A DNA stretch of 64,000 nt from a virus, in IMG/VR virus record IMGVR_UViG_3300032069_000007, positions 16,288 through 80,287 of that record; one strand, 5' to 3'. Positions within the stretch are counted from its first letter, which is position 1; each line of letters begins with the position of its first letter. Shown here piece by piece: positions 12,742 to 40,970 of the stretch. A program made the translations under genes and the position numbers. Under the pieces are notes generated by a model. That model was not told the DNA's origin and made no database searches. It was given only the letters and a program-made list of their open reading frames with translations.

Positions 12742-13977
12742 ATGGAAGCACAAACAACGTTCGCCGAGCGCTGGGCCGTAGCGAAGGGCATCAAGTCCGA
12801 CCTTGCCGACGCGCTTGAAGATGAGGAAGAGGCCGTCGCGGATTACGACGAGCAACTCGAGGAGGCCGGCGAAGGCAAACTCAGGGAAGACCTGACGGAG
12901 ATCCGCGATGACGAGAAGGACCATGCGCGGCGACTCCGGCGCCATCTCAAGCGGCACGTCGCGGGCAAGAGTTTTGCCGACCGCTGGGCCCTCGAAAAGT
13001 CCAACCCGAGCCTCATCCGCCGCACGCCAGGGCATCCTGCCCACCAGGCGTTGCTGGACGTTGGGGCGCGCTACCACGGCACGATTCGCGACCCGAGAAA
13101 CGGGGCAGAGCATCACGTTTACTCAGTGCCGCAGAAGATGAACTTCCAAGGCACGGCTATTTCGGCCAACACTGCCGCGGGGTGGCACCGCCTATCAGGG
13201 AACTGGGCACCCATGGCTACGCCCTCCCGCCACACGCACCGCTGGTCGTCATTTGAAAACCCGGAGAGAACAGCCCGACACGTGCTCCACGGGTTCACAA
13301 ACCCAGAGCATGCCGAGGCCGCACTCAAGGCGACTCATCGGTTGACGCAAAAGTGGCAGAAACCTGCGGCTCTGGGATCGCCCAAGAAGTCCTTCGCCGA
13401 GCGGTGGGAAGTGGAAAAATCCCACGTCAAAGGCCATTACCGCCAACGCGGCTCCAAGCGCTCTTGGGTCAAGCCGCACGAGCGGAAGGACACTCCGGGT
13501 GCCCCGCGGCAGGAACCAGCGGCGGGTATCCAAACCCCGTACCGCACGCGACAGGAAGTGGAGCGCGAGACGTCGGAACTCTTCCGGGATGCTGACGTGA
13601 TCTCGACCTACACCCGCAAGGACGCCCTGGCAGACGGCACGCTCGTTGACCTGACAAAGTGGGCCTCATCCGGGCCGGAAGGTATGATGGGCGGCTTCAA
13701 GGTTCCGGTCGCGGTAACGTCCGCTGTCTGGGGCGAGATCAACGACATCCCGAAGTCGAAGCAGGGAATTCAGGACGTTCGGGGTCGCGCGCACGATGTG
13801 CTCACGATGGCAGTGCTTGCGGCAAGGAGTGCGAAGCCGGGTAACAGCGAAGTCCTGTTCCGCGTCATCATGGACATCTCCGCAACCCGGGGCCGATACC
13901 AGACCTACAAGTTGAACATTGGGCCAGGGGATGTGGGCGAGCCCGTTGTGACCATTATGAGGCCCGAAGAGGACTAG
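12742..13977 (+). CDS. Modular protein: ferritin-like helices + unknown + basic hairpin + DUF6573-like
   Basis: EEEAVADY...DEKDH; C-terminal YTRKDALADG..GFKVPVAVT..GPGDVGEPVVTIMRPEED; modules separated by FA(E/D)RWx(V/L)xK(S/G) repeats. Confidence 0.75.
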   Translation: MEAQTTFAERWAVAKGIKSDLADALEDEEEAVADYDEQLEEAGEGKLREDLTEIRDDEKDHARRLRRHLKRHVAGKSFADRWALEKSNPSLIRRTPGHPAHQALLDVGARYHGTIRDPRNGAEHHVYSVPQKMNFQGTAISANTAAGWHRLSGNWAPMATPSRHTHRWSSFENPERTARHVLHGFTNPEHAEAALKATHRLTQKWQKPAALGSPKKSFAERWEVEKSHVKGHYRQRGSKRSWVKPHERKDTPGAPRQEPAAGIQTPYRTRQEVERETSELFRDADVISTYTRKDALADGTLVDLTKWASSGPEGMMGGFKVPVAVTSAVWGEINDIPKSKQGIQDVRGRAHDVLTMAVLAARSAKPGNSEVLFRVIMDISATRGRYQTYKLNIGPGDVGEPVVTIMRPEED

Positions 13978-13987
13978 GAGGGCCAGG

Positions 13988-14146
13988 ATGGCTGAAGCCG
14001 TTCCCGAACCCGCATTGTGGGCAGCCAAGCCGCAGCCTGACCGCAACGTCGGCGACGGGTGGCCTGCTTGGGACATTGAGTGCGATCGCTGGCGCGACCC
14101 AGAACGACCAAGGGAGCAAAGATGGCGCCGACCGAAACCGCAGTAA
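13988..14146 (+). CDS. Small hypothetical protein (52 aa)
   Basis: AGGAGGG SD and ATG; fills the gap between genes; below the ORF-track cut-off. Confidence 0.35.
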   Translation: MAEAVPEPALWAAKPQPDRNVGDGWPAWDIECDRWRDPERPREQRWRRPKPQ

Positions 14147-17100
14147 AGCCCGTTCTGGATTTGCACGACCTCGAGAAGTCGAGGGTGAGGGCGTACACCC
14201 GGCGTGGATCGAGTGGTCAGCCAGTTCAGGTTGCCGAGTATCAGACGAAGGTCCAGAAGAGACCGCAAGCCCCCGGCGGGCCGCGTCTCACGGTCGCGCG
14301 TCAGCCAGCAACTCGCTCTGCCAGAAGCCGGTTAGCCTCTGCCTCGTCGATGCGCTTCCCATCGCGCAGAAGGTCGGCGTACAGGACGTCAGCACGCACC
14401 CAGTCCGCATCCCAGGGTGAGCGGCGCTCCACGGCATCCAAGGAGGTCTTGCCTTCGTCCTCCGACTCGACCCAGGAACGGCAGACGGTGTCGCCGTCCA
14501 AAACCCAGTATGTTAGTTCGCGGTCTGGCACTGTCCGGTCCACCCCCAAGGTCATTATACCACGAACAGCAGCGGCAACGACATCGGCGGCGCTCAGCCG
14601 CAGAATATCCAACCTCGAGAGCACCGGCAACGGTCACGAGGTCGCAAAGTATGCGGCGGCGATCGCGGCTCACCTCAAGGACGCACCGACGCCCTTCAAG
14701 GGAACGTGGGAGGACAAGCGACAGCCGACAGGCGACATCCCGGACCTACTGCAGCTTGCAGAGAGTGCCAAGCCGAACTTTGAAGCGAGTCTGGGGAGGA
14801 TCGCTGATCGGCACGGCGGGGCTAGTGCCTGCCGCATCAAGCAGGAACAAACGCTCAGGACGCGGATGCGCGACAAGGGCCGGCCCGCTGATACCGTGAC
14901 GGACATTCTCGGCGGCCGGATCATCACCGATGACCCTGCGCACATCGCTCCCGTTCTTCGAGAGTTGCGAGAACTCTATCCCGTAGTAGAGGATGAAGAT
15001 AAGTTCGCCCACCCTACGTCCTTTGGCTACTGCGCCCGGCACGTGCTGGTCAAACTGCCGAGCGGCCTTACGGCCGAAGTCCAGGTCAACCTCCGAGAAT
15101 CCATCGAAATCCAGGATGTCGTCAGCCACCCGATCTACGAGGAGCTTCGCGCACCGAAGCGCAGGACCGTCGAAGAGCGCCAGGCGTTGCTCGCGAAGGT
15201 GGACGAGATACGGGGCCGGTACGCCGAGGTTCTGCGCAAGGCGACTGCGGCTCTCGGATTGGTGGTCAAGTCGCTCGTTGTTCGGTCCGTTGCGGCCTTC
15301 CAGGAGGCGAAGCACCCGCGAGTGCCACAAGGGCAGCGGGATGCCGAGGGTCGAACCGGCGGCGAGTTCGCGCCCAACCGCACCGGCAGATATACGCGGA
15401 AGGTCGTGACGCCGCGCGGCAACGTCGTCTACGTGTACCCGAAGCGCGTGGCCCAGGCCCGGCAGTCGGCCAAGTTTCGAGGGATGCAGAAGTTGGCGGG
15501 AAAACTGCCGACAATCCGCACTGCCCTCTCGCAGGATATCCGGCGCAGGGACCTCGAGGAGCGAAGAGTCTGCGCCGTTGCAGTCGCACTGATAGACAGC
15601 CTGCACTTCCGGGTCGGCACAGAGGGGGCCGAGACCGCCGGCGAGCCGACGTACGGCGTGACGACGCTTTTGGGTGACCACGTGCGCAACACGGACGCCA
15701 AGATCATCTTCCAGTTCCGCGGCAAGAAAGGGGTCCAATGGTCGCGGGAACTCCACAAGCCCGATGACCCGGATCTGGCGAGCGCCGTGGAGCAGATCTT
15801 GAGCGGCGTCGGACCGGACGAGCGCGTTTTCCGCTTTCGGGGCGCGCGCGGTCTCGAGCCTCTGACCGGGTATCGTGTTGAGAAGTACCTCAAGAGGTGG
15901 AACACGACGCCGAAGGCGTTCAGGACATTGCACGGGTCATACCTGGCGCACAGTGCGCTGTCACAATTTGTCAGCCAGCACCGCGGTCAGCGGCAGTCCA
16001 GGAAGCAGGTGAAAGCAGATATTCGCGAGGTCTGTAGCTATGTTTCCGCGGAACTGGGGAACACGCCCGCGATCGCGAAGCGGAGCTACATAATGCCGGA
16101 GATCATCCGAAGCTACATTGAGTCCGAGGGCACAAGGGTCGAGCCAGACCTCAAAATGGGGAAATCATTGGACGTCTGCCAGCTCTGGATTTTGGCAAAC
16201 GAGCACGGTCAGGTCCGCGGGTTCCTCCACAATGCGACGGAGCACGTCGAGCGGTTCGCGGACCAGCTCGCAAAGGCCCGAGTGGAGAAGTCCGACCAGG
16301 AGGTCGAGAAGTCACAGTTGGGGCTGCCGTACCATCTCGAAGGCGGGGTTGGCTCGGCGCACAGGGGGGCCAAGAAGCGGCTCGGCAGGCGCGCGCTGAT
16401 AGTCCGGACAGGCCGACAGCCAAAAGCGGCAGGCGATCCCGACCTGTCGCGGAAGATCAAGCGCATTGTCGGAGTCGTTGATACCCGCCAATACGAGGAG
16501 ATCGGCGACACGTGGAAGCCCATCGCCGGTAGTGGGACAGTGAACCAATGTGCGCGCTGCGGGAAGGACCATGAGGTTCATGCGACGGTCGAGCTTCAGG
16601 ACGGCACGCACGCCGTAGTCGGCACGAGCTGCATGAAGGCCGACAACATGGAGATGGCGCTGCGCTTCGAGAAGCTCGACCGGGCGGCCAGGCGGCTGCG
16701 GCAGCTCGAAGCCGAAAAAGCAAAGTACGATAGGGAAGTGCAGCAGTACCAGGGGGCGCTCGCGGAGGTCAGGGCGATGCCGAAGCCTCCGATCGAGGTC
16801 GTTATTGCTGAGGACCACCCTTGGTCACGGTACGAGTACAGAATGGGCGAAGCTAGGTGCTGGGGCGAGAAGCCCGATGATCCAGAGCGGCGCATGTGCG
16901 TAACATCGAACTGGGAGACGAAAGAGCTCGTGAAGCGCGGGATCCCGCACGGGCGGCGTCCTTACCCACTCCACGAATTTGACAGGGAAATCGCCAAGGT
17001 GAAAAGGCGGATCGAGGCGGTCAAGGCAGAGTCGGAAGTCGAGAAGTCCTCTCTCTCGCGCGCGCGCAAGATAGTCACGGAGATGTACGAAAATCTTTCA

Positions 17101-20100
17101 AGCGATGCCACGCTCGAGTTCGCTCAAGACGGCGAATGGTATATCGTTCCCCGCATTGAGAAGGCCGGCGCTGCGACAGCAGAACCAAAACAGAAGGAGT
17201 GGTGGTCAGGAGCTGCGACCGGAGACGAGCGCTGGATCACCGTCCATCCGGACCCGGGCAGTCCTGAGAACTACCGCCACGTCAAGGTTCGGCTCAGGCC
17301 CTCCGGCAAGTGGCACATCATCGCCGGCGGAACCGGCCTCGAGCACGAAGAGATCGTTCCGAAGCACAAACTGACGCCGGAAGAACGGGAGCGCTACGAG
17401 GAGCGCCGGAAGAAGATGGAGGGGATCCGCAAGGAGCGCGAAAAGGGCCTTGAGCGGCTGACCGAGGTGCGGGAACAGCACACGAGCGTAAAAGCCGAGC
17501 AGATGGGGATAGCACCCACACTGACCGAGGACACGCGGCGGGCCGTCGAGCACAGGGCAGAGACACGGGCGGAGGATGCCGGCCTGACCGGAGACGACCG
17601 GGACCGGTTTGTAGCCCGCGCTGTCCACGAAGCTGAGACGCGGCACCACGCTTACGTGCGCCGGGCTTGGGATCGCCTTTACTATCAGGCTCACAAGATC
17701 GCCCAGGCAGAGGACCCGGAGCTCGCCGTTGGCGAAATAGCGAAACGGCACGACGAAGAGGAGGATCGGGCCGCTGATGAAGCCGCGGGCAAGGTGGAAT
17801 CGAGCCTGCGAGAGATGATCGGCAAGCCGGCCTCCTCGGGTGAACCGGAGGCTGAGGAGCCGAAGGCTGAAGTTGCCATCGCCGAGACCGAAAGAGCTCA
17901 GCCGATTTACCGGCCGCCGAAGGTCAAGCCGATCTCCTCCGTGGAGCAGGCTATGAAGATCATTAGCCTGGAGAAGCAATCCCGCAAGATGATCGCAGAA
18001 GGCCGGAAGGAGCTTGCGAAGCTGCCCGAGGAGGAACTGTCCGGGACAGGAACGCTCGAGCAGTTTCAGATTACCGCAGAACTTGCGGACGAGCAGGGCG
18101 CGATGGCTGCTGCTATCCGCTCCGTCGACGATGCCAGGCGCGCCAGCCTCAACTCTACGCTGGTCCGCTTGGCCGACGAAACGTTCCGATCCGAGGAGGG
18201 AGCGTACGAGCGATACGGCAAGAAGCGGTACGACATTGGCCGGGCACAGGTCACAGGCGCCCTGGATGCACTGACCGGGATCTCTACCCGGTTTATAGGT
18301 TCTTCTTTCATAGACAGGCCGCTGGTGGAGGCGCTGGGAGTCGAGGCTGCGGCAATGCTCGCAACCCGCGAGATTCTGCAAAAGCGTGGGAGGCTCGACT
18401 TGGACGACGTCATAGCCGATATGGAGAGCTACCACGCGGGCGAAGCGATGAGGATCGCGCAAGAGGCCGTAGCGCAGCACGACGAGCTCGAGGGGATGCG
18501 GAAGACGGTTGACGAATCCTCTGCGCGCGCGCTCGTTGAGGGCGGGGAGACAGGAAGGCTTTTCTCCACTGCCCAGGCCCTCGCTTTTGACGGCGAACTG
18601 AACGTAGACGCCGTAAGACACTTGGGCACGGCGATAGGATCCTTGCATGCGTCCGCGACGGTCATGGCGATGCTCCGGGCGGCGAAGTCCGGGAAAGGCA
18701 AGCTCGACGAACTCAAAGTGAACATTACAGACGAGGGCGATGTCGCTCTCATTGACAGGATGTTGCACCTCCGCGGTCACTACAAGGTCACGCACGACCC
18801 TGAGACCGGCACCACCTCGGTCCTGCTTAATCCAAAGTCGCTGGCCCGCTACATGAAGTTTGCAGCCAAGGAGCGCGAAGAGTCCGACTACGCGAAGGCC
18901 CTGCAGAACGGCACAGCGAAAATTGATGTCTCGGCAGCGCCGGAGGGCTGGAAGGACCGGTACACAAGCCCCATAGACCGCCAGGAGAGAGACTTCCATT
19001 GGAAGCCGATCCAGCGGCGCGCACAGGAGTTTTTCCTCAGCCAATGCACCGGCGACGACGGCGGCGCCCTGATCGACCTGGAAGTAGGAGGCGGAAAGAC
19101 GATAATGGCGCTCGGCGCGATGGGATTCCTCCGCGACCAGGGGAAAGTGCAAAAGATGCTTTACATTGCACCGCAGGAGTCCCTGGTGGGCCAGGTCCTC
19201 GGCGAGGTCGGGGGATTCACCGACTGGAAGTCGAATCAGGTGCGCGGAGGCGCAAGGGCAAGTCTTGACGACATCAGGGGGCGCTATTCCGACCCTTCGT
19301 TCGTTCAGGTGGTTTCTGCCCCTACGGTGGGCGCAGACGTCCGCCGACTGGAGCAGCTTGGGGTAAACCCATCGGACTTCTTCCGCGAGCTCGGGTACGA
19401 TGGAATGGTGGCCGACGAGGCCCACAAGTTGGTGTCTGGCGTCGGGGGGGGCAAGAACGCCCGCGCGCTCAGGCGTATGCGTATGCGCTACAACCTGGCG
19501 ATGACCGGCACGCTCGTGACCAACGCGATCTCTCAGCCCTTCGACCTTGTCCGGTGGGTCGCGGGAGCAAAGGTGGACAGCCGTGCGAAGATTCTGCGCA
19601 AGTATGGGGAGGTCGGGCTGGGAACCACGGCATGGCAGGACGCTGTCAACGCCGACGTCCGCCAACAGGTGGATCGGCACACATTCCACGGGGCCGGGAC
19701 CATCAAAGCCAAGCTCTATCGTAACGAACTGAAGGTGGGCCTCTCGGAGACGCAGCGGCAGGACCTTGCCCAGGCGGTTAAGGCGGACAAGGTGCGCCGT
19801 GATGAGTATGCCAAGTCCAGGCCAGCCACTCCCGAAAAGGCCGAGCAGGCGCGCAGAAAACTCGACTTCGACCGCGACCGCGAGGTCTTCGAGATTCTCC
19901 ACAACCGGGACTGGAAGCAGAACGACAGGTTGCGCGAGATCGCAAAGACGATCAAGCGGACGGTGGCCGACAACCCTTCACAGAAGTTCATCCTAGTGGC
20001 CGATACTGATTATGGACTCTCTGCCATCCGGTCGGTCACGCGGATGCTGGCTGATCTGGGCTACGGCGACAGGACAGCACTTTTCGCGAGTCAGGACGCC

Positions 20101-20424
20101 TCCGGTCAGGCGATCTCACAGAAGAAGATGATGCGCGAACAGGCCCGCTTCGCGGTCGATTCTAGCTGCCAGTTCGCGGTACTTGCCGCTCCGCAGGCGA
20201 TCGGGCGCAATATGGAGGCCGCCGGAGTCTTGGTACACGTCACGCTCCCGCCGGACGCCGGGTCGGAGAAGCAGCGGACAGGGCGCGCCTGGCGCGAGGG
20301 CCGGCAGGGAGATGTGAACGAGACGCTTTTCTATACCGACCAACATCCGTTTGATATGAGCCGCCTGCTGCAACTGAGGCGGACCGCAGGTCCGCTCGCC
20401 GCCATATCAGGAGGCCAACCGTGA
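14122..20424 (+). CDS. Polyvalent protein: RelA/SpoT-like nucleotidyltransferase + topoisomerase IB + Zn finger + SNF2 helicase
   Basis: RIK..TDILGGRI..GYCARH..AEVQV..SHPIYE (RelA/SpoT); FRVG, GKKG, KAFRT, LGNT, RSY (TopIB catalytic set); DLEVGGGKT, VADEAH, MTGT, QRTGRAWR (SF2/SNF2); ATG 14122 with AGGGAG SD. Confidence 0.85.
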   Translation: MAPTETAVKPVLDLHDLEKSRVRAYTRRGSSGQPVQVAEYQTKVQKRPQAPGGPRLTVARQPATRSARSRLASASSMRFPSRRRSAYRTSARTQSASQGERRSTASKEVLPSSSDSTQERQTVSPSKTQYVSSRSGTVRSTPKVIIPRTAAATTSAALSRRISNLESTGNGHEVAKYAAAIAAHLKDAPTPFKGTWEDKRQPTGDIPDLLQLAESAKPNFEASLGRIADRHGGASACRIKQEQTLRTRMRDKGRPADTVTDILGGRIITDDPAHIAPVLRELRELYPVVEDEDKFAHPTSFGYCARHVLVKLPSGLTAEVQVNLRESIEIQDVVSHPIYEELRAPKRRTVEERQALLAKVDEIRGRYAEVLRKATAALGLVVKSLVVRSVAAFQEAKHPRVPQGQRDAEGRTGGEFAPNRTGRYTRKVVTPRGNVVYVYPKRVAQARQSAKFRGMQKLAGKLPTIRTALSQDIRRRDLEERRVCAVAVALIDSLHFRVGTEGAETAGEPTYGVTTLLGDHVRNTDAKIIFQFRGKKGVQWSRELHKPDDPDLASAVEQILSGVGPDERVFRFRGARGLEPLTGYRVEKYLKRWNTTPKAFRTLHGSYLAHSALSQFVSQHRGQRQSRKQVKADIREVCSYVSAELGNTPAIAKRSYIMPEIIRSYIESEGTRVEPDLKMGKSLDVCQLWILANEHGQVRGFLHNATEHVERFADQLAKARVEKSDQEVEKSQLGLPYHLEGGVGSAHRGAKKRLGRRALIVRTGRQPKAAGDPDLSRKIKRIVGVVDTRQYEEIGDTWKPIAGSGTVNQCARCGKDHEVHATVELQDGTHAVVGTSCMKADNMEMALRFEKLDRAARRLRQLEAEKAKYDREVQQYQGALAEVRAMPKPPIEVVIAEDHPWSRYEYRMGEARCWGEKPDDPERRMCVTSNWETKELVKRGIPHGRRPYPLHEFDREIAKVKRRIEAVKAESEVEKSSLSRARKIVTEMYENLSSDATLEFAQDGEWYIVPRIEKAGAATAEPKQKEWWSGAATGDERWITVHPDPGSPENYRHVKVRLRPSGKWHIIAGGTGLEHEEIVPKHKLTPEERERYEERRKKMEGIRKEREKGLERLTEVREQHTSVKAEQMGIAPTLTEDTRRAVEHRAETRAEDAGLTGDDRDRFVARAVHEAETRHHAYVRRAWDRLYYQAHKIAQAEDPELAVGEIAKRHDEEEDRAADEAAGKVESSLREMIGKPASSGEPEAEEPKAEVAIAETERAQPIYRPPKVKPISSVEQAMKIISLEKQSRKMIAEGRKELAKLPEEELSGTGTLEQFQITAELADEQGAMAAAIRSVDDARRASLNSTLVRLADETFRSEEGAYERYGKKRYDIGRAQVTGALDALTGISTRFIGSSFIDRPLVEALGVEAAAMLATREILQKRGRLDLDDVIADMESYHAGEAMRIAQEAVAQHDELEGMRKTVDESSARALVEGGETGRLFSTAQALAFDGELNVDAVRHLGTAIGSLHASATVMAMLRAAKSGKGKLDELKVNITDEGDVALIDRMLHLRGHYKVTHDPETGTTSVLLNPKSLARYMKFAAKEREESDYAKALQNGTAKIDVSAAPEGWKDRYTSPIDRQERDFHWKPIQRRAQEFFLSQCTGDDGGALIDLEVGGGKTIMALGAMGFLRDQGKVQKMLYIAPQESLVGQVLGEVGGFTDWKSNQVRGGARASLDDIRGRYSDPSFVQVVSAPTVGADVRRLEQLGVNPSDFFRELGYDGMVADEAHKLVSGVGGGKNARALRRMRMRYNLAMTGTLVTNAISQPFDLVRWVAGAKVDSRAKILRKYGEVGLGTTAWQDAVNADVRQQVDRHTFHGAGTIKAKLYRNELKVGLSETQRQDLAQAVKADKVRRDEYAKSRPATPEKAEQARRKLDFDRDREVFEILHNRDWKQNDRLREIAKTIKRTVADNPSQKFILVADTDYGLSAIRSVTRMLADLGYGDRTALFASQDASGQAISQKKMMREQARFAVDSSCQFAVLAAPQAIGRNMEAAGVLVHVTLPPDAGSEKQRTGRAWREGRQGDVNETLFYTDQHPFDMSRLLQLRRTAGPLAAISGGQP
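14301..14531 (-). CDS. Nested antisense small acidic protein (76 aa), candidate antitoxin/immunity protein
   Basis: GTG 14531, GGGGGTG SD (14547-14541), TGg-TATAAT (14562-14554); the overlapped sense frame reads as Ser/Arg-rich low-complexity sequence. Confidence 0.6.
   Translation of the reverse strand: MPDRELTYWVLDGDTVCRSWVESEDEGKTSLDAVERRSPWDADWVRADVLYADLLRDGKRIDEAEANRLLAERVAG
14554..14562 (-). promoter_or_regulatory. Extended -10 promoter for the nested antisense gene
   Basis: TGGTATAAT on the minus strand; no clear -35. Confidence 0.55.
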
Positions 20425-20511
20425 CCGTTCGTGATAGAACGTGCGCGTTCATCCGCGCGGCGATCCGGGCCCACCTGAGACGCTATCGGGCATGGCCGAA
20501 GGGGGACAGCG

Positions 20512-30500: not shown

Positions 30501-33500
30501 GTTTCTCCAGAACGACAACAGCAGCTCCTGGAGGCGCGGCAGGCAGAAATGGCGCGCAAGCACGCGAGGGTCGCGACTCGCGCCCGGGGCAAGTTCGCAA
30601 CGGAGGAGCGGCTCGGCATCAGGCGTGAACGCGCGGAGGCCCTCGATCGGGCCATCCGTGGAGCTGCGCTCTCGCTGTTCAAGGAGAAGCCGCTGCCCGC
30701 GATCGAGCGGGTTACGATCGGCGCCCGGGCGGAGAAACAGCTCCAGTCCATCTTCCCCTACGTTGCCCAGAACTTTGAGGTTGACCGGCCGGTAGACATC
30801 CCTCACGATGTAAATATGAGCGAAGGTGAGATGGTAAAGCAGCAGCGCGCGGTGAAGCTGATCGAGGGCCTGAAGCGGCTTTCGCTCAACCTGGGCGTCG
30901 GCACCGGCAAGACCCTGGTCGCGTTGGGCAGCTTCTCAGACCTGCAAGCACGCGGCGCAGTCAACCGCGCCATCTTCGCTGTGCCAGCCAGCCTTACGGC
31001 GCAGTTCGGGTGCGTTCGGGGCGACACGGAACTCTGTGACCCTATCCGCGGACTCACCATGACATTTGAGGAGTGGCTGCTTTCGGGCCTGAGGCCCTTT
31101 GTCTGGACCCGGGCCGCGGGTGGACAAGTAACCATCGAACTGGCGTCTCGCCCATTCCTGAAGGGCCTTGATCGGATGTATCGCGTGGAGACGGACGATG
31201 GAGCGTCAATTGTTGTGACCGCAAAGCATCGCTTCCTTACGCCGAAGGGTTGGAGGCCGTTGTGCGAGTTGCCCGTCGGCTCGCTTGTTTCTTGCGCCGT
31301 CGCTCTGAAGCGTGCAACAAGCGATGCTCACGGTGGCTCCCGAGCAACTGGAGATTATCGATCCGGTTGTCATCCTTTTGGCCATTACGGTGATGAACGA
31401 GCTCATCCGGCTCCAGATAACGGCCAACGTGCTTTTCCATTATCAGGCGGTGCTCGAGATAGTAACCCAGTGAATTTGCCTGAGGGTGGTCCGGCACAAA
31501 CAACGCGATGTAGCCAGCAGAACGCCGAATCCGACCTCCCTTCCAGTTGTTTGCCTTTTCGCCCTTGTGACGGTTGGCATTGCCGAGTCTTGGAACGTCG
31601 AGCTTCTTCAGGCGAAGCCGAACCGCATCCTCGCTTGCGCCGTTATCCAAAATGCGGGCTATCTCCGAACACGACCGCCCCTGCTCAGCCAACTCTCGCA
31701 ACCGCTCGTCGCTCCACTCGTACCCAGGTGGCCTGCGCCCGTTCAGGCGGAGTTTCCGCATTCGACGAAGGACGGTCGCTTGTGTTGTCCCAAAGTAACG
31801 AGCCAGCCAAGATAGCGATCTCCCTTCTTGAACGAAGCGGCGGAGGTCGTTCTCATCTATGGAATGAGGTCGACGACCAGTGCGCAGAGCCTCGGAAAGC
31901 CCAAGAGCCCTCACCCGACGAGCCAAGTAGCTCTGACTCCTCCCGGTCTGCCGTGACATCCAAATGCAGGTTCGATCCTCGGCAACCCAATCCCGCAGTT
32001 GCTGATCCGGGACGGCGGCGTATTCTGGGAGACTTGGCGGAGTCAGTCCCAATTCAAGCAAGCGCCGCCGAAGCGTGTGCCGTGCAAGGCCGAATTGGCG
32101 CTCCATCCAAGCCAGCGACCTTCCCTGGCTGTGGTAGCGCCTCAATGCCGTTTCATCAACCTGTTTCGTCGGTTGGCTCATGCACCCAGTATAGCACAAT
32201 TCGCAACATCTCGGAAGTGGGGCTTGCCCTTGTCTTCGACATCGCAGTTGCACGGACACACAACTACTGGGCTGGCGGGTTCTGGAATCACAATTCGGAA
32301 GCCTTGAGGTTCTACGAACCTGGCAGGTTCAAATGGTTCGCCGACCCGACGGCCAGCGCTGAGGACCGCCGGGCCGCCTATACTGATCCCGATCGGCAGA
32401 TATGCGTTGTCACCCATCAGGCCCTCAGAGACGACCTCGTCTGGGCGGTGGGCCAGGATCGGTTCGGGGGCAATGTACGAAAAGCGGAAGACTGGATGCG
32501 TGCGGCTCCCGAGGACGAACGCAGGCACGAGGTACGTGCGGCAGCGGAGAAACAAGGGTGGAAGTGGGACATGTGTTTGCCGTACGAGGCTCCGGTGGCG
32601 ATGGCGGACGGAACAACTCGCAGGATCGGAGATCTCGTGGAATCCCGATCAAGCGATCCCGTGCTGTCACTCAACCTTCAGAGCGGTAGGTTGGAGGCCA
32701 AGTCAGTGTCCGATTGGTTGCGCTTGGAGTGCCCGCACCCCCAACTCTACCGAATCCTCGCGGGCGAAGCAAGCGTGATATGCACAGGTGATCATAAGAT
32801 ATGGACACTCGGTAGGGGGTATGTCCGCGCTTGCGAGGTGCGAGTAGGTGACCGACTTTTGGCTTTACAACCGACCGACTCTCTGCTAGAATTGGAACAC
32901 GATACCTTGAACCGGGGTGACAGAAATGGCAGTGAGGGATATGTTGGTCGGAACGCTTCTGGGCGATGCCTCGATGGGCCAGAGCGCTGCCGGGACGCCG
33001 CGAGTAACGATCAAGCACTGTCCCGCGCAAGAGGATTATCTATTCCACAAGTACGATCGACTGAGATCAATATGCCCATCTGCGCCGAAGTTCGTCAGGA
33101 ACGGGGGATGGGGCGGCGACCTCTGGGTCTTTCAGACGAGCTGCCTGGATTGGTTGCGGCAGTACCGGGAGATGATGTGGCGCGACGGGAGGCGTCGGAT
33201 TGCCGACGCCGTGAAGGATCACTTGACCCCGGAGGCACTGGGTTACTGGTATATGGACGACGGTTCGCTGTCGAACGGGTGTGCCACACTCAGCACACAC
33301 AGGTATTTGCGGGAAGATCAACGGAAGCTGCGATCTTGGATCCGCCAACTGTACGAGATCGAGGTTCTGGAACGCTACGACCGAAGGCACGACCGGTTTT
33401 ATATGGCGATGCGCAGAGAGGCGACGCGCCGGTTTGTGGCACTTCTGAGTCCCCACGTGCCGGAGTCCATGAGATACAAGCTGAATGTGCCGAATGCGGA

Positions 33501-35084
33501 GTTGCTGCCGTACATAGCGCCAACCCCGGAGGCCCTGCCGGGACGACTGTGCGTGATCTGCGGTCAGCGGTATGCCTTTCAGCAGGTCTGCGACTCTCCG
33601 GAATGCAAGCAGACCAAGAGGGACTGCGACAACCGGCGTTGGTACGACGCGCACGCTGCCGAGATCTCGGCGAGAACTCACGAGGAGCATCTGCGGAATC
33701 TCGGAGAGGGAACGTGCGAGGTGTGCAAGAGTCAATTCCTCCGCACCAGTCGCCTCCATGTACGCACGTGCTCGGCGGCATGTCGAGCGGAGTGGAAACG
33801 CCGTCGGGCCCTGGCATGGTACTACCAGAACTGCGATGCCATGAAGCACCAGTAACCTCAGTCGAGTTCACAGATGCGCCTGCGTTTGTCTATGACATAA
33901 CGGTGGAGGAGAACCACAACTTCTTCGGCTACGGCCTCCTCGTCTCCAACTGTCTTGTTGATGAGGGTCAGGATATTCTCCGCCGGCTTCATAAAGCCGA
34001 CAGCCTGATGCAGCACGCCATCGACGCTCTGTCATATCACACTCCCTATTACATCTATTCCACGGCCGACCCCGTCAAGAACGACTGGTCGGAAGTCCAC
34101 GACGTTTTGGCAAAGGTAGCACCCGACCGTTATCCCGCCGCCAGCCGGGAGGAGTTCCACCGCCGTTACGGAATCGACTGCCTCCAGACTCAGCAGGCGC
34201 TCAGACAGGAAATGCACCCATTCGCCTATGCCGAGCGTATTCCTCTGGGCATCGTGGCAAGCAGGAGGCAGGAGCCAGTGCAGCTCTCTGCCCCAGAGCA
34301 ATCCGAGTACGACGGTGTCCTCCAGGCATATCGAACCGCGCAGACGGCACGGCGCGCCGGAAAGGTAGACGATGCCGTCCCCGCGTTGCGGCAGATGAAC
34401 CCCCGTGCCTTCGAGGGCAAAAACGAAGCCGAACAGCGGACAGAGGCGGGGAGGATGTTGCAGTTCCTCTCGGCCGCCAGAGACTCCGCGCTGGACCGAA
34501 TCGTCAACGCAGGTTCGGTGCGCGGGGCAGGCGTGCGCATACCGGCCAAACTTGAAACATTGCACGCGTTCGTGCAGTCACGAATAGCAGAGAAGGGCGC
34601 TGGCCTCGTCTTCGCGCACTCGATAGAGGCGCAGAACCAGATCGCGGGATACCTCAAGAGCAAGGGGATCAAGGTGGGCACCCTCTCAGGGTCTGACCCC
34701 GGGGCGAAACGCGAGCGCACGCGCCAGGACTTTCAGGCCGGCAAGTTTGACGTCCTCTGCCTCAGCGATGCTGGATCGACGGGGCTCAACTTGCAGAGGG
34801 CCGCATTTTGCTGTAACTTCGACTCGCCGTATACGGCGAAGACCTACGAGCAGCGGATCGGCCGCATGGAGCGGCTGGGCCAGACCAACCCTGATATGAA
34901 GGTTCTGGATCTGGTTACGACCACTCCCTACGAGCGCGGCCGGAGGCGACTCCTGGAGCGCAAGGGGAAGCTGCGGGAGGCGCTGACCGCGCCTTACGAA
35001 ATGCTTGATGACACCGATTTGGGGAGAGAAATCGCTGAGGCGCGAAGCAGTGAGATCGAGAAGGCAGTACTTAAAGCCGCTTAG
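27513..35084 (+). CDS. Giant SNF2-family helicase protein containing two inteins
   Basis: LGVGTGKT (Walker A); AVPASL..QFG|SE (motif Ia, split by intein 1); M|CLVDEG (Walker B, intein 2); [22 protein letters not shown]; start may be ATG 27525. Confidence 0.9.
31237..32181 (-). CDS. HNH homing endonuclease with 4 HTH repeats, antisense inside intein 1
   Basis: [35 protein letters not shown]; NWKGGR; four LRxxxxxGRS-like HTH units; ATG 32181. Confidence 0.9.
32188..32216 (-). promoter_or_regulatory. Extended -10 promoter for the nested HNH gene (leaderless)
   Basis: TGc-TATACT (32196-32188), 6 nt, then ATG; weak -35 TTCCGA at 17 nt. Confidence 0.7.
32864..32892 (+). promoter_or_regulatory. 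sigma70-type promoter inside intein 2
   Basis: TTTACA (32864-32869), 17 nt, TGc-TAGAAT (32884-32892); SD GGGGTGA at 32914-32920. Confidence 0.75.
32926..33855 (+). CDS. LAGLIDADG homing endonuclease + Zn ribbons, in the +1 frame inside intein 2
   Basis: [11 protein letters not shown] and [11 protein letters not shown] (two-motif LAGLIDADG); CVICG, CDSPEC, CEVCK, CSAAC. Confidence 0.9.
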   Translation: MAVRDMLVGTLLGDASMGQSAAGTPRVTIKHCPAQEDYLFHKYDRLRSICPSAPKFVRNGGWGGDLWVFQTSCLDWLRQYREMMWRDGRRRIADAVKDHLTPEALGYWYMDDGSLSNGCATLSTHRYLREDQRKLRSWIRQLYEIEVLERYDRRHDRFYMAMRREATRRFVALLSPHVPESMRYKLNVPNAELLPYIAPTPEALPGRLCVICGQRYAFQQVCDSPECKQTKRDCDNRRWYDAHAAEISARTHEEHLRNLGEGTCEVCKSQFLRTSRLHVRTCSAACRAEWKRRRALAWYYQNCDAMKHQ

Positions 35085-35790: not shown

Positions 35791-36420
35791 ATGATTGCGC
35801 AGGACCCAACCCACCAATCCACGCCGCACGAGTTGTTCGACCGCTACCAGATGCTCGCCCACAAAATGGCCGGCCTCGCCAAGGTTGACCCAGAGACGAG
35901 AAGAGACCTGGACCAAGAGGCCCTGATCGCTCTCTATGAAGCCAGCCAGAAGTACGATGCCGGACGTAGGTTGCCATTCCCCAGTTTTGCGCGCATCTAC
36001 ATCCGGGGGAGGATAAATCACTATCTTCGCGACCACCTCGACATGATCCGAACGCCCTGCCGTGTCTGGGAGGGGGGCGGCCCACCAGTGCCCTGTATTT
36101 TGGAAGCCGACTACGGCTTCCAGACGCTACAGAAACAAGCAGATTTTGACGGGTACGACTGGCACCCGGGCCTCGATAATCTGCCGGACCAGGGACGGGG
36201 GCAAGTCCTCAGGGCGATAACGAGAGCTCTGGCCGCGATCCGAGTAAGCGCAGTCGACCGCCGGATACTAGCCGCAGTTTTCTTGGAGGAACGCGAGCCG
36301 GAGGAGACCGCGAAGGTCCTCGGGGTCGCTCCTCAGCGGGTGCAGGATGCCATAGACAGGCACCTCGGCAAGCTCAGATGGAGGGTGGCCCAGATGCTGG
36401 AGTTCTATGCGGCACTTTAA
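35791..36420 (+). CDS. Phage RNA polymerase sigma factor (SigB/F/G/FliA-like)
   Basis: Region 2 DLDQEALIALYEASQKYD..FPSFARIYIRGRINHYLRD; region 4 EETAKVLGVAPQRV. Confidence 0.9.
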   Translation: MIAQDPTHQSTPHELFDRYQMLAHKMAGLAKVDPETRRDLDQEALIALYEASQKYDAGRRLPFPSFARIYIRGRINHYLRDHLDMIRTPCRVWEGGGPPVPCILEADYGFQTLQKQADFDGYDWHPGLDNLPDQGRGQVLRAITRALAAIRVSAVDRRILAAVFLEEREPEETAKVLGVAPQRVQDAIDRHLGKLRWRVAQMLEFYAAL

Positions 36421-36506: not shown

Positions 36507-38687
36507 ATGGCACAAGAAAGCTTCAACATCCCACTTGAGATCGTCAAGGCCGAGCGGACCTCAGACGGCCAGATGCGCATTCACGGCATCGCGAGCGACG
36601 AGAGCCTCGACCTGCAGAACGAGGTCGTCAAGGCAAGCGGCCTGGCCGAGTCCCTCGAATACCTCAAGACCTGGGGCAAGTTCAACGACGACCATAAGCG
36701 GATTTTTCTCGGCGATATAGATCAAGCTGAGATTACGACACGCGGGGCGCTTGCGGCAAAAGGCCTGCCCTGCAGGCCGGACCAGGTTAGCACGCCGTGT
36801 GTCTACGTTGCTGGCTATCTCTTCCCCAAGGTCGCCAGGGCGAGACACTATTGGGACGTAATCCAGTCCGGTGGCCGGGTCGGGATGTCGGTACAGGGAA
36901 GACCGCTTGCTGCGCCGATAACCGTCAAGAGCGGGGACGGCCAAAGCGAGCACCGCATGTGGACTAAACTCTTCGCCAACCAGGTTGCACTGACTGTCCA
37001 GCCCATCAATACCTCCACATGGGTCGGAATACAGAAGAGTTTTGAAAGGAAGTTTGGTGTCAAGATACCGAGGCGCCTGCGTTGCATATCCCGCAAGGTA
37101 GTGCCGGGTCGAAAACAGCGACTGTACGAGTTCGCCTCTTCGACTCCCGGGATTCACGCGGGGCAACTCGCCGATGGACTGCGCCGAAAAGGCCATGTGG
37201 TAAGCGTCCATCCCGCGCCTGTGAACCTGGGCATGCCGCACGTGATAACGACCCGCACCAACCGGGGCACTGAATATCGATTCCATATCTACCAGCGCTT
37301 CGGGAGGTCGCTCGGCACCGGCAGCGCCATAGTGGGCCCGGGCACGCCTGAGCCTGCAGGCGCTGCCCTTCGGACTCAGAGCCTAGAAGGGGCGGTTAAA
37401 CGACTGACACCGAGGCTGACCATCAAGAAGAAGAGGAAAAAGAAAATGCAGAAATCCATTGAAAGGCGCGAGGACGTGTCCGCGGCCGAGAAGAAGCGCG
37501 CCGCCGGCGAATATGGCGACGTGACCTACGCCGATCCGGTCAACAAGAAGTACCCACTGGACGCCGAGCACATCCACGCAGCGATAGCCTACTTTTCCAA
37601 GCCTAAGAACCAGGCGAAGTACTCGCCGGAGGAGCGGAAGCTCATGTGGGGGCGCATCAGGCGGGCGGCGAAGAAGCACGGCGTCGAGATGGCGAGCAAG
37701 AGTTTCGGCGAGCGATGGGGCATTGTCAAGGGACTAATAGACGACGAGCGATATGGATCGCACGTTGCGGCCGAGGCAGGAGTGAAGCACATCGGCACGC
37801 GGCACGACCCTGGCGAGACTGCGGATAACCCCAATGTTCATCATACCTATCGCTCGAAGAACCCCAAGTCTGGTGCTGAAGCCATTCAGTATCACCTCAA
37901 CCGATACGCGAATAGACGCGATGCTCTGCGGGTTGAGCATGACCCGAACGGCCAGTGGTCGAAAATCGTGCATACCAGGCCCGGACTCCCGACCCACACG
38001 CACCTCGTTACAAGAGGTAGGCACGTTCAGAAATCACAGGGCTACGACGGGCAGTACGACCTCACGCAATGCGTTTCCGAGGAGGAGGCAAAGAGTCAAG
38101 TGCCAACTTTAGATTTTCAGTCCATCGGGACGATGACGCCGGGCGAGATCGTGAAGGCGTGGCGGTCGGTTACACAGCCGAAAGAGGCAGTCCTGCACCC
38201 GCCCGAAGAGCTCAGGGCCTACAAGGTGGCCTTGGGAGCGGCCGCCCGCGAGCACAGTCCCGCCTGGGCTGCGGGAATCGCGAAATCCCAGGGCTGGTCG
38301 CCAGCGGCCGATATGACGGAACTTGACATCGGCGTCTGGATGGCACTCGCCGAGATGTCAGAAGACGATGTCGCCAAGGCCATTTCCAGGGGCGAGGCAG
38401 AGGTCTGCAAGTCGCTTTCGGCAGGCTACGGCCTGGACCAAGCCACAGTCCATGACGGTTGGCAGGACCTGCTCAAGAAAGCGGTCGCCGGAAACCAGTC
38501 GGGGTGTGACCTCGAGGCACCGGAGAAGCCGCTTGACGACAGCCGATCTCAAGGCGAACTGCCGGATGAGAAGAAGCGCAAAAAGAAAAAGCCGACCGAA
38601 CCGGGCGACAACGATCTGGAAGGCGTGCCCGATCCGCCGGAGAAGCCACTCGACGATAGCCGCTCGCAGGGGAAGTTTCCGAGTTAG
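36507..38687 (+). CDS. Prohead protease with modular C-terminal extension (DUF6582-like domain)
   Basis: GIASDESLDLQNEVV, NDDH, GMSVQG, VALTVQPIN; YADPVNKKYPLD..RIRRAAKKHGVE; PEKPLDDSRSQG x2; ATG 36507. Confidence 0.85.
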   Translation: MAQESFNIPLEIVKAERTSDGQMRIHGIASDESLDLQNEVVKASGLAESLEYLKTWGKFNDDHKRIFLGDIDQAEITTRGALAAKGLPCRPDQVSTPCVYVAGYLFPKVARARHYWDVIQSGGRVGMSVQGRPLAAPITVKSGDGQSEHRMWTKLFANQVALTVQPINTSTWVGIQKSFERKFGVKIPRRLRCISRKVVPGRKQRLYEFASSTPGIHAGQLADGLRRKGHVVSVHPAPVNLGMPHVITTRTNRGTEYRFHIYQRFGRSLGTGSAIVGPGTPEPAGAALRTQSLEGAVKRLTPRLTIKKKRKKKMQKSIERREDVSAAEKKRAAGEYGDVTYADPVNKKYPLDAEHIHAAIAYFSKPKNQAKYSPEERKLMWGRIRRAAKKHGVEMASKSFGERWGIVKGLIDDERYGSHVAAEAGVKHIGTRHDPGETADNPNVHHTYRSKNPKSGAEAIQYHLNRYANRRDALRVEHDPNGQWSKIVHTRPGLPTHTHLVTRGRHVQKSQGYDGQYDLTQCVSEEEAKSQVPTLDFQSIGTMTPGEIVKAWRSVTQPKEAVLHPPEELRAYKVALGAAAREHSPAWAAGIAKSQGWSPAADMTELDIGVWMALAEMSEDDVAKAISRGEAEVCKSLSAGYGLDQATVHDGWQDLLKKAVAGNQSGCDLEAPEKPLDDSRSQGELPDEKKRKKKKPTEPGDNDLEGVPDPPEKPLDDSRSQGKFPS

Positions 38688-38697
38688 CCGCAGAAGA

Positions 38698-38719: not shown

Positions 38720-38757
38720 TAGCCGTGGCGTGCCTGTGATGCAGGAGGTACGCAGTT

Positions 38758-39396
38758 ATGGGAAAGCGTAAGGACGAAGACGTCGACGACATCCTCGATC
38801 GCCAAGCTGAGGACGAGGACGAGGAAGAGTTGGAAGGCGAAGGCGACGAGGAGGAAGAGGGCGACGAGGAGGAAGAGGGCAACGAGGAAGAGACCGAGGA
38901 GGAAAAGAGGCGTTCGGCCAAGCGCAAGTCCCTCACAGATATTCTGAGGGAGGACGAGCAGTCGGCTGAGGCGCTCGACGTTGCACCGTTCCTCACGGAA
39001 CTGTCCCAGGCCATCGGCAAGTCGCTTGAGACGATGGAGGGCCAGATCGTCAAGAAGCTCACCAAGCACATCGATTCCCGGCTCGCCGAGATCGGAGACG
39101 CGGTGCTTGACCAGGGCGCGACCGTCAAGGAACAGGCCGAACTCATGAAGAGCTTTGGGGAGGCCATTGAGCAGATCGGGAAGGAGCCGCAGGCGCGAAA
39201 GAGCAAGCCCTACGGCGTCAACACACCTCTGATCGAGAAGTCGGACGGTGGCCGCTCGCGCGAGGAGATGCAGAAGCTCATCATGAAGGCGTGCCAGGAT
39301 AGGAAGCTGGAGGCCGACTGGGTCACCAGGGCAGAGGACCCCGCGTACCCGGACGACCTTCTTGCCAAGGCACTGGCCAGCATCGCCGTCGAGTAA
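38758..39396 (+). CDS. Capsid scaffolding protein
   Basis: Acidic N-terminus, coiled coil; between protease and capsid; AGGAGG SD. Confidence 0.75.
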   Translation: MGKRKDEDVDDILDRQAEDEDEEELEGEGDEEEEGDEEEEGNEEETEEEKRRSAKRKSLTDILREDEQSAEALDVAPFLTELSQAIGKSLETMEGQIVKKLTKHIDSRLAEIGDAVLDQGATVKEQAELMKSFGEAIEQIGKEPQARKSKPYGVNTPLIEKSDGGRSREEMQKLIMKACQDRKLEADWVTRAEDPAYPDDLLAKALASIAVE

Positions 39397-39485
39397 CCGC
39401 AGTGTGACAACCGAGCAGCCCCACGTTACCAGAGCAGCCGTAGTTTGACGTTGCCCACGAATACTACGCAAAGGAGGAAGCGTCA

Positions 39486-40970
39486 ATGATTGGCGTTTCA
39501 GACCAGTTCGTGGGTCTTGCGAACTACACGGACCTGATGGGGGGCTTCGGAATCTCCAGCGCCTTCGAGGTGCAGGAGCTCCAGAAGGCCCTGACAACCG
39601 GGCAGGATATCGTCGCGGCCGGCCCACAGGGCGGCCAGGCGCTTCGAGTACAAAGCCTGGAAAATACGCTTAAACTTCTCACGTACAGGGCTTCAGATTT
39701 GGCCCTGTGGCAGAGGATGGCGAAGAAGACGGCGTTCTCGACTGTCGAGGAGTACAGCCGATTGGACAAGCTGGCGATTGAGATGCCGGCGTTCGTCGGT
39801 GAGAACCCGGACCAGAACGTAGCCGCCGAGCGGTGGGTCGAACAGGACCAGAGCTATAGCCGACAGGTCGCAACCGTGCGGTTCATGGCCATCAAGAAGG
39901 CCGTGACCCTCGCCGCGACGTTCGTGCGGAACATCGTCCAGGACATCGAGGCGCACCAGACCCAGATAGGAACTCTGGAGCTCCTGGGGCGCGTCGAGGC
40001 TGGGATGTTTTACTCCGACAACCGGGTGAACCTGTTGGCCTGGGACGGCTACCCGGCGTTGATGCAGAAGTTCACGGGCGTCGTGCCGTACACCGGCACC
40101 TACAACAGCGTGGCGTACACCACTGCCGCGTGGCCGAGCGGTGACTTCAAGGACATCATCGTCGACTGCGAGGGCAACCCGCTCTCGGAGGAGTATCTGG
40201 AACTCGGGCAGCAGATCACGAGAACCCACTACGGAAAGCTCGACGTGCTCTTCATGAGTCCGAGGGCGAAGTCCGATCTCTACAAGCAGCTCTATCCTGC
40301 TCAGCGGATAATGATGCCGCCCACTCCGGATGGCCGCGTTGGGATCAACTTCAGCTTCTACATGGGTTCCAACGGAGAGTCGGAGCTCCTTTCCGACGTG
40401 TTCATTGGACTCCGAAGGCCGAAGGCTGTTGCGGATAGCGGCGCTCCGACCGCGCCCCAGAACGGCACCAACATCACGATTGCAGCGGCCTCGTCCGCCA
40501 CATCGAAGCTGGAGACCGACACCTACTACTACTATCTCTCGAGCGTCGACGGACAAGGCCGGGAGTCAGTCACGACGTCGAAGAACCAGGCGGCGACAGT
40601 CGGCCAGAAGATAACCCTGACCGTCAAGACGGCGTCCTGGCAGACAGGCGCGGTTCAGTGCCGGGTCTACAGGAACAAGGGCACTGACGATATCACGAAG
40701 GCATCGCTGATCGTGACGCTGCCGAAGCCTGACAGCGGCGACATCGCCTACGTGGACGAGAACCAGTCGAGGGAGAACTGCTCAATTGCGATGGGGTTCA
40801 CCTGGGACGCCGATCAGGTGGTTGCGTTCAAGCAACTCGCACCGCTGATGAAGCTCCCCTTGGCCATCGTCAGCACGGCCAAGCCCTTCTTGATCCTACT
40901 GTACGGCACTCCGGTGCTGTACGCTCCGAGCAAGTGCATCCTCTATTCCAACGTAGGGATGCTGACGTAG
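39486..40970 (+). CDS. Major capsid protein (Herelleviridae-like pattern) with beta-sandwich insertion
   Basis: LQKALTTG..ALRVQSLE..STVEEY..LAPLMKLPLA..LLYGTPVLYAP; AAGGAGG SD. Confidence 0.9.
   Translation: MIGVSDQFVGLANYTDLMGGFGISSAFEVQELQKALTTGQDIVAAGPQGGQALRVQSLENTLKLLTYRASDLALWQRMAKKTAFSTVEEYSRLDKLAIEMPAFVGENPDQNVAAERWVEQDQSYSRQVATVRFMAIKKAVTLAATFVRNIVQDIEAHQTQIGTLELLGRVEAGMFYSDNRVNLLAWDGYPALMQKFTGVVPYTGTYNSVAYTTAAWPSGDFKDIIVDCEGNPLSEEYLELGQQITRTHYGKLDVLFMSPRAKSDLYKQLYPAQRIMMPPTPDGRVGINFSFYMGSNGESELLSDVFIGLRRPKAVADSGAPTAPQNGTNITIAAASSATSKLETDTYYYYLSSVDGQGRESVTTSKNQAATVGQKITLTVKTASWQTGAVQCRVYRNKGTDDITKASLIVTLPKPDSGDIAYVDENQSRENCSIAMGFTWDADQVVAFKQLAPLMKLPLAIVSTAKPFLILLYGTPVLYAPSKCILYSNVGMLT

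Follow-up and report, generated by a model that had tools for sequence, protein, structure and literature searches.

The 64,000-nt stretch of DNA analyzed here (the window; bases 16288–80287 of the 80,287-bp IMG/VR record IMGVR_UViG_3300032069_000007, which is estimated to be ~93% complete) covers most of an uncultured tailed phage of ~80–88 kb, the head module of which is of the Herelleviridae (SPO1/Twort) type. Five co-oriented open reading frames (ORFs), i.e., g12742 and four giant genes (giants 1 to 4), fill ~22 kb between its portal and prohead protease genes. The enzymes encoded in this head block include a RelA/SpoT-like nucleotidyltransferase, a topoisomerase IB, a histidine phosphatase, an InPase pyrophosphatase, a GHKL ATPase, and two SNF2-type helicases. 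A short lysine motif, [LIVM]xK[SAG], is statistically enriched in the core head proteins of this phage, is linked by homology to a real maturation site of the major capsid protein (MCP), and is placed at module borders of the head-block proteins. The reading that we favor, and in which our confidence is evenly balanced, is that g12742 and the giants are polyvalent proteins (packaged, processed multi-enzyme chains of a type already published; Iyer, Burroughs, Anand, de Souza, Aravind 2017, PMC5512222) whose propeptides and joints would be read by a Lys-specific Herelleviridae-type prohead protease; judging from the sequences, this protease would trim g12742, giant 1, and giant 3, and would cut the joints of g12742, the first half of giant 1, and giant 2.

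The link of the motif to capsid maturation runs through the MCP (Table 1), which matches 707 phage records at <30% identity, mostly Herelleviridae, and aligns with the PDB entries 9vel, “Gp6.1” (E 4.3e-43), and 5lii and 9row (both E ~1e-12); we take 9vel and 5lii to be the MCPs of SPO1 and phi812, respectively. The aligned counterparts of LQK34↓A in the window MCP (the arrow marks the bond after Lys) are LNK↓A in 9vel and VVK24↓S25 in 5lii, a chain of 463 aa; 9row, which is the same protein as 5lii, is 439 aa long and begins exactly 24 residues later, at the residue after Lys, and it is on these deposited chain lengths that the link between the motif and MCP cleavage rests. The HK97 capsid protein is cut at K103↓S104. 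The original prediction had taken cleavage after Lys in a KS context to be established for Herelleviridae capsid precursors; the MCP alignment and the cultured Bacillus phage CP-51 are consistent with such cleavage, but our literature searches found no paper stating the cleaved bond. While a single-protein scan of viral contigs recovered no relatives, an alignment scan recovered four uncultured ones (L002–L005; ~30% identity), all of which keep L-x-K↓A-L at the maturation site of their ~30%-identical MCPs. The scaffolds of these relatives contain 10–14 motif copies versus ~1.5 expected (z 7–11; here and below, expected counts are from composition-preserving shuffles), and CP-51 has 9 copies versus 1.3 expected in its head maturation protease, 13 versus 1.4 in its scaffold, and LNK26↓A in its MCP.

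The prohead protease of the window is a fusion protein, the layout of which was derived from alignments of four close homologs and five clade members. A 14-aa N-terminal piece (IVK↓A) is followed by the protease domain, which extends to IQK220↓S, by a region resembling the MCP N-arm, by a poly-Lys stretch with MQK359↓S, by DUF6582, by a variable cassette (aa 441–552, IVK451↓G to VQK552↓S), and by a conserved C-terminal domain with five more sites. The protease domain shares 25–31% identity over >90% of its length with records annotated as prohead protease or peptidase S78 (tblastn, E 1e-8 to 7e-4; Herelleviridae); the Pfam S78 profile did not match the window protease, and a PDB sequence search with the domain gave no real match. 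The proteases of all five clade members contain an invariant NDDH and a G-[FM]-S-[IV]-[QE]-G motif, which by sequence alignment are candidates for the catalytic His and Ser, and in all five the domain is flanked by F-x-x-P-x-E-[IL]-x-K↓[AS] on the N-side and by N-T-x-T-W-x-x-[IV]-x-K↓S on the C-side. Because of the MCP alignment, the conserved MCP sites of the relatives, the saturation of the scaffolds, the pattern in CP-51, and these conserved protease flanks, (L/I/V/M)-x-K↓(S/A/G) is very probably the cutting rule of this prohead protease family.

Two parts of the protease extension resemble other proteins of the window. Protease aa 306–345 (37293–37412) copy the mature N-arm of the MCP (MCP aa 30–75, 39573–39710; 35% identity over 86 aa, E 8.6e-4), with R↓S where the MCP has K↓A; this region could dock the protease to the shell interior. 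The cassette at aa 441–552 (37698–38033) has wholly different sequences in four 73–86%-identical homologs, although x-x-K↓S closes each version; in the window, it is paralogous to g12742 aa 64–127 (37% identity, E 1e-4).

All of the tetrapeptides named in the original prediction were found in the ORFs to which they had been assigned, together with additional sites in the 14122 ORF (LRK387↓A and LAK732↓A), the 27513 ORF (IRK64↓G, VPK396↓A, VRK1657↓A, LHK2161↓A, and VLK2521↓A), the protease (VVK85↓A, IVK451↓G, VAK667↓A, and LKK701↓A), and the scaffold (IMK177↓A). Protease, scaffold, and MCP together contain 19 motif sites versus 5.1 expected (z 6.2), with 11 versus 2.9 in the protease alone and five versus 0.7 in the scaffold alone. 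Controls in this core head set (reversed motif, Arg for Lys, Glu for Lys, and acidic P1′) were all flat; [LIVM]xE[SAG], for example, occurs once versus 5.4 expected, i.e., without enrichment. The small head-block ORFs together present 10 sites versus 3.5 expected (z 3.5), an excess driven by g12742 and by a doubtful Arg/Ser-rich ORF of 110 aa (20441–20773), which contributes two sites and is probably not a gene. The tail and downstream ORFs present nine sites versus 8.4 expected (z 0.2). The predicted enrichment of the head block over the tail is thus seen for the core head proteins and the small head ORFs.

In the giants, it is the placement of the sites that departs from chance, in line with the original prediction that they would map to domain boundaries. 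To delimit domain cores, we combined Pfam envelopes with HMMER alignments against 1.8 billion representatives, with a paralog alignment, and with the limits of the inteins. Of the 23 motif lysines, only 4 fall inside cores, as compared to 196 of the 292 other lysines (Fisher p = 3.5e-6), a comparison that involves few sites and core limits drawn after the sites were known, though from independent alignment coordinates; 14 of 21 reversed motifs lie inside cores (p = 0.002 versus the motif). Within-segment shuffles gave the same picture, with 19 sites versus 5.7 expected (P < 0.001) in the inter-core stretches, which include regions without an assigned fold, and four versus 9.5 (P = 0.035) in the cores; the 1086-aa helicase module of giant 1 contains no site versus ~3.2 expected. 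Depletion in cores would be expected for proteins that must survive exposure to the protease. Motif lysines are a median of 18 aa away from the closest end of a module or protein, versus 61 aa for all lysines (permutation P = 0.0006), and 12 of the 23 motif lysines, versus 22% of all lysines, are within 20 aa of such an end. A FoldIndex-type disorder score did not separate the sites from other lysines and was dropped.

Short N-terminal pieces ending in the motif are found in 6 of 14 head-block ORFs versus 2 of 24 other ORFs of the window, including g12742 (K15), giant 1 (K19, from ATG 14122), giant 3 (K8, from ATG 24241), the protease (K14, from M44), and the MCP (K34). Most head-block ORFs of the relatives have such a piece, and no tail ORF of L002 or L003 does. 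Three modules would begin after the cut with the same basic peptide, S-[HR]-V-[KR]-[GA]-[HY]-x-R... The most likely starts are at 14122, 21114, and 24241 for giants 1 to 3 and at 36507 (M44 of a 769-aa long frame) for the protease; with giant 2 starting at 21114, IGK59↓G of the long 20925 frame lies outside the protein.

The smallest of the chains, g12742, consists of a propeptide (aa 1–15), an EncFtn/rubrerythrin-like segment (aa 16–86), a His-rich module (aa 87–226), and a basic tag with DUF6573 (aa 227–411; DUF6573 E 1.3e-26). Three of its joints read F-A-[ED]-R-W-x-x-x-K↓[SG], and a fourth copy of this sequence opens the cassette of the protease. The segment at aa 16–86 (12787–12999) is acidic and two-helical, with an E..H-type pattern and sub-threshold matches to Rubrerythrin (E 0.0045) and EncFtn-like (E 0.0089) models; this segment may represent a ferritin-like module that travels in the capsid, much as cargo proteins do in encapsulins.

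Giant 1 begins with a 19-aa propeptide (LEK↓S), followed by a basic tag with a Ser/Arg-rich region and RelA/SpoT, an HPR motif with topoisomerase IB, a helical linker with three sites, a module of ~200 aa, a 39-aa piece, and a 1086-aa SNF2/ResIII helicase module (Pfam matches: RelA_SpoT, E 1.5e-8; Topoisom_I; ResIII/DEAD). K397↓S and K695↓S lie on either side of its topoisomerase IB block. Homology to the block made up of the HPR motif and topoisomerase IB starts 2–4 aa past VVK397↓S in three polyvalent relatives (query 385–387; the site is query 383), and the topoisomerase alignments end at query 665–690, around MGK695↓S. In an AlphaFold2 (AF2) model built from a topoisomerase-only alignment (mean predicted local distance difference test score, pLDDT, 81.5), K695 is located in a loop with pLDDT<50 just past the last topoisomerase helix; an alignment mixing homologs of topoisomerase and of the ~200-aa module was misaligned, and was replaced by the topoisomerase-only one without being folded. 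The ~200-aa module (aa 791–983, 16450–17028) represents a stand-alone family with conserved Cys/His motifs and no Pfam model; ~100 or more stand-alone proteins of 190–210 aa align with it end to end (E<1e-22). In the relative P0050 (92% identical, 1127 aa), the helicase module is an ORF of its own, which starts 3 aa upstream of VEK989↓S. Past the N-terminal tag, giant 1 contains a very basic, Ser/Arg/Thr-rich low-complexity stretch (aa 35–250, 14182–14830), which, by analogy with T4 internal proteins, could bind DNA inside the head. The HPR motif (F-x-E-x-x-H-P-R...G-G) is found both before the topoisomerase IB of giant 1 (15298–15360) and in the N-terminal part of giant 2 (21504–21570), with low AF2 confidence.

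Giant 2 is composed of a helical N-module, an HPR-motif region, a histidine phosphatase, InPase, and two or three small C-terminal modules (Pfam matches: His_Phos_1; InPase, E 7e-41). Stand-alone InPase proteins (143–155 aa) project onto residues 560–580 to 709–731; these limits and the confident AF2 block at 582–710 both match the span between the bracketing sites K579↓G and K717↓S. Eight multi-domain relatives, some as little as 41% identical, keep the site at the C-terminal end of InPase at the aligned position. Comparison with P0011 and P0016, both mosaic relatives, places the breakpoints of homology at K780↓S, K869↓A, and K950↓A in long-frame numbering; the joint LxK↓[SA]LPYHLEGGxGSxH occurs three times in P0011, and an LPD1 domain was found only in the relatives P0011 and P0012. 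The InPase region matches PHROGs annotated “minor head protein” and “virion structural protein” as well as a “DarB-like” family. All four relatives L002–L005 likewise encode an InPase-containing protein ≤10 kb upstream of their protease genes, in the form of a solo protein of 238 aa, a 538-aa protein, a 1542-aa protein with topoisomerase IB, and a partial protein; a head-block InPase is therefore a trait of the clade.

Several results, given here and in the next two paragraphs with the alternatives that they favor, weigh against cutting at the joints, as does the late drawing of the core limits. The enrichment of the motif did not extend to the giants, which contain 25 sites versus 17.8 expected (z 1.8, p ~0.05); the reversed motif scored similarly (23 versus 17.9, z 1.3), and the count in the giants is therefore not above chance. 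While sites at N-termini and module borders of g12742 and giants 1 and 2 agree with the original prediction that the block proteins are cut into separate enzymes, giants 3 and 4, with sites essentially at their ends, do not fit such cutting, and their sequences suggest that they would be trimmed instead. Giant 3 has a single, N-terminal site. Giant 4 has a Zn-ribbon-like N-piece, both IRK64↓G and LSK83↓A just before an RWVTLHP module that is paralogous to giant 1 (E 1e-16), then an SNF2-type helicase, and finally two trivial C-terminal sites. Its three internal sites all lie in cores (K396 in the paralogous N-module, K1657 and K2161 in the helicase) and look like chance; K1657 and K2161 are not conserved in the homolog from L006, whereas K396 and the terminal sites are. 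Two inteins (31014–32294 and 32580–33950) interrupt the helicase of giant 4; as both are absent from the 82–93%-identical homologs of L006 and L007 (upstream parts of relatives, from one metagenome scan), they are recent insertions. In giant 1, K387, K397, and K732–744 are located in predicted long helices rather than in loops, and the separate helicase ORF of P0050 starts with Leu and therefore could be a truncated gene call, not a true separate gene. AF2 modeling of giant 2 (nine sequences) was confident only at residues 4–50 and 582–710, so that most giant 2 borders are drawn from homology alone. Finally, some motif occurrences in the protease and MCP are probably buried and uncut. Much of this would agree with an alternative in which the giants are packaged but lose only their short N-terminal propeptides to the protease, the joint motifs staying uncut and whole chains being delivered, and the cuts in internal proteins of T4 and SPN3US almost all remove N-terminal propeptides. 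We consider this alternative unlikely, since the internal sites of the giants significantly hug module borders and coincide with mosaic breakpoints and with a split ORF, the site flanking InPase is kept in place across eight diverged relatives, and the scaffold, which would be cut at such sites, is itself helical.

A second alternative is that the giants are not cargo, but act inside the cell as early or middle enzymes of replication, recombination, or anti-defence and simply happen to be encoded in the head cluster, with a joint motif due to linker composition and shared ancestry, and that the protease never meets them. Their domains are typical of DNA metabolism, inteins are usually found in replication-type proteins, a sigma factor gene belongs to the same block, and the giants show no numerical enrichment of the motif. 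In addition, no MuF domain was detected by Pfam, profile, and PHROG searches of the window head block, so that the MuF component assumed in the original prediction was not supported, and no known capsid-targeting signal was detected in the giants. However, all giants are co-oriented between portal and protease, and replication and recombination functions of the phage are encoded in a module apart from them (Mre11/Rad50, DnaB, and a DNA methylase of its own, upstream of the window). Both the literature and PHROG annotations tie InPase and RelA/SpoT polyvalent proteins to virion genes, N-terminal propeptides with the motif also occur in the MCP and the protease, and depletion of the cores (four versus 9.5 sites, and zero versus ~3.2 in the giant 1 helicase) would be expected only under protease exposure. 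Together, these observations make this alternative quite improbable.

A third alternative is self-processing, i.e., a zincin-type metallopeptidase cuts the chains before or after delivery, and the Lys motif is irrelevant to the giants. An in-chain zincin metallopeptidase (MPTase) has been proposed as the processor of polyvalent proteins (Iyer et al. 2017, PMC5512222). Giant 3 contains an HEMTH zincin-like motif (25810–25824) with sub-threshold support from a WLM match (E 0.04) and from SprT/YgjP-like look-alikes (0.75–0.76); this region may be a polyvalent-protein metallopeptidase and could be the processing enzyme proposed in the literature, and the relative L003 has an ATLF-type zincin match (6859–9591). 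Among the head-block proteins of the window, however, none matched the Pfam MPTase-PolyVal model, and a zincin provides no reason why the joint motif should be that of the MCP, scaffold, and protease or why the cores should be depleted of it. We regard self-processing as very unlikely.

Under the reading that we favor, for which we infer protease specificity, packaging, internal-joint cleavage, and ejection from the genes, the prohead serine protease would cut after Lys in (L/I/V/M)-x-K↓(S/A/G), remove the 34-residue N-terminus of the MCP, degrade the scaffold, and free itself from its own long C-terminal extension. The giants and g12742 would enter the prohead and meet the same protease, which would remove N-terminal propeptides (8–19 aa) from g12742, giant 1, and giant 3. 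Cuts at module joints would further split g12742, the N-terminal half of giant 1, and giant 2 into individual enzymes. The helicase modules, large and almost free of sites, would remain intact, and delivery of the products together with the DNA would follow. A tentative and rather doubtful extension is a plug-and-play cargo system, in which each enzyme module of the head block, delimited by the Lys motif and in many cases starting with a retained peptide (K↓SHVKGHxR... three times in the window; K↓[SA]LPYHLEGG three times in a relative), could be exchanged between phages by recombination at the joints and would still be loaded, released within the capsid, and injected as one of ten or more separate enzymes, the protease gene itself acting as a carrier through its cassette at aa 441–552.

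Published polyvalent proteins combine 2–15 unrelated enzyme domains per chain, are encoded beside portal and terminase genes, and are predicted to be packaged, delivered with the DNA, and processed; InPase and RelA/SpoT occur solely in polyvalent proteins of the phage type, which are predicted to be packaged (PMC5512222). Giants 1 and 2 resemble them in the several unrelated catalytic domains per chain, the portal-terminase context, and the presence of InPase and RelA_SpoT, but differ in that their joints and N-termini carry the motif of the capsid protease and in that they have no clear MPTase. We know of no description in Iyer et al. 2017 of topoisomerase IB, histidine phosphatase modules, or cassettes made up of a cut site and a tag for polyvalent proteins. 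To our knowledge of the literature searched, joints written in the code of the capsid protease, together with retained N-terminal tags, represent a combination of polyvalent proteins with prohead processing that has not been described. As compared to Herelleviridae (SPO1 Gp6.1, 9vel; the Twort-like 5lii/9row; CP-51 gp32–34), the window phage has a homologous MCP and protease, the same L/V-x-K↓S/A site, and the same saturation of scaffold and protease; however, identities are ~25–30%, its genome is ~80 kb rather than 130–150 kb, its protease is fused to ~550 extra residues, and ~22 kb of giant genes are found between its portal and protease genes, which are adjacent in CP-51.

Prohead proteases also process packaged, ejected proteins in T4 and SPN3US/phiKZ, where short propeptides of 10–24 aa exist and the capsid-targeting propeptides of T4 have 10–20 residues (PMC5694885, PMC10052503). 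As in the internal proteins and Alt of T4 (cut by gp21) and in the substrates of SPN3US/phiKZ (gp245/gp175), the predicted propeptides in the window end at a short motif that the MCP and scaffold also carry. The T4 and SPN3US/phiKZ proteases, however, belong to another family and cut after Glu (L/I-x-E, A/S/G-x-E), and most of their substrates have a single function and lose an N-terminal piece, in contrast to multi-enzyme chains cut internally. The Dar proteins of P1 (DarB helicase-methylase, DarA, and DdrB) include very large, helicase-containing proteins that are packaged in the head and injected, some of them processed during head assembly (PMC5512222); the link to the window is limited to the “DarB-like” PHROG family, which matches only the InPase region, and the capsid and protease types differ.

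The window has a GC content of ~61%. On its plus strand, the large terminase gene is followed by a gene for a 1089-aa CBM-containing protein, the portal gene, three small ORFs, g12742, and the four giants, and then by genes for a sigma-70-like factor, the protease fusion, the scaffold, the 494-aa MCP, and the tail; terminase, portal, protease, scaffold, and MCP genes thus flank the giant block on the same strand. The portal protein contains three motif sites (VVK58↓A, LLK428↓S, and LYK598↓A) versus 0.7 expected. The sigma-70-like gene contains none and is context, not a substrate; it is located between giant 4 and the protease, overlaps the long frame of the latter, and is kept in L006 and L007. 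A TnpB-like gene (50708–51940, minus strand; OrfB_IS605 and a Cas12f1-like TNB domain, E 3.6e-17) is found among the tail genes.

Table 1. Coordinates of the head-module and head-block features of the window (position 1 is the first base of the window).
Feature	Position	Strand	Basis or remarks
Large terminase	480–2255	+	
Portal protein, 616 aa	7257–9107	+	PHROG portal families, E 1.7e-34
g12742, 411-aa polyprotein-like head-block protein	12742–13977	+	4 sites versus 1.0 expected, z 3.1
Giant 1, 2100 aa from ATG 14122	14122–20424	+	Pfam, HMMER, AF2 of topoisomerase module
VVK397↓S joint, giant 1 (long-frame numbering)	15262–15273	+	HMMER alignments
MGK695↓S joint, C-terminal end of giant 1 topoisomerase IB fold	16156–16167	+	HMMER, AF2
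VEK989↓S joint, giant 1	17038–17049	+	6 aa past ~200-aa module
Giant 2, 982 aa from ATG 21114, seven sites	21114–24062	+	Pfam, P0010 gene call, mosaic comparison with P0011 and P0016
InPase module between VLK642↓G and MIK780↓S (K579 and K717 in 21114 numbering)	22842–23267	+	Homology, AF2
Giant 3, 922 aa	24241–27009	+	8-aa propeptide MRTEELRK↓S, then shared basic tag SHVKGHWR...; GHKL/RIIA-like ATPase region
Giant 4, 2523 aa (~1639 aa minus two inteins)	27513–35084	+	Pfam; intein-less homologs in L006 and L007
Sigma-70-like factor (regions 2 and 4)	35791–36420	+	Pfam Sigma70_r2, E 4.4e-7
Prohead protease fusion, 726 aa from M44	36507–38687	+	PHROG 1028 head maturation protease, E 1.9e-10
Scaffolding protein, 212 aa	38758–39396	+	PHROG scaffold
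MCP, 494 aa, SPO1/Twort type	39486–40970	+	PHROG 752, E 7e-59
Predicted MCP maturation site LQK34↓A	39579–39590	+	Alignment to 9vel and 5lii

If the joints are cut, the capsid maturation protease of this phage would double as a polyprotein-processing enzyme, as in RNA viruses, and a quarter of the phage genome would encode pre-made enzymes that are packed and injected ahead of gene expression, a set including an alarmone-type synthetase, topoisomerase IB, pyrophosphatase, phosphatase, and helicases. A simple sequence rule, read from the motifs in the MCP, scaffold, and joints of one and the same phage, would then predict virion cargo and mature protein ends across a large phage group, and the processing of polyvalent proteins without an MPTase would be explained. 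Such a system would also lend itself naturally to packing foreign enzymes into capsids of the Herelleviridae type.

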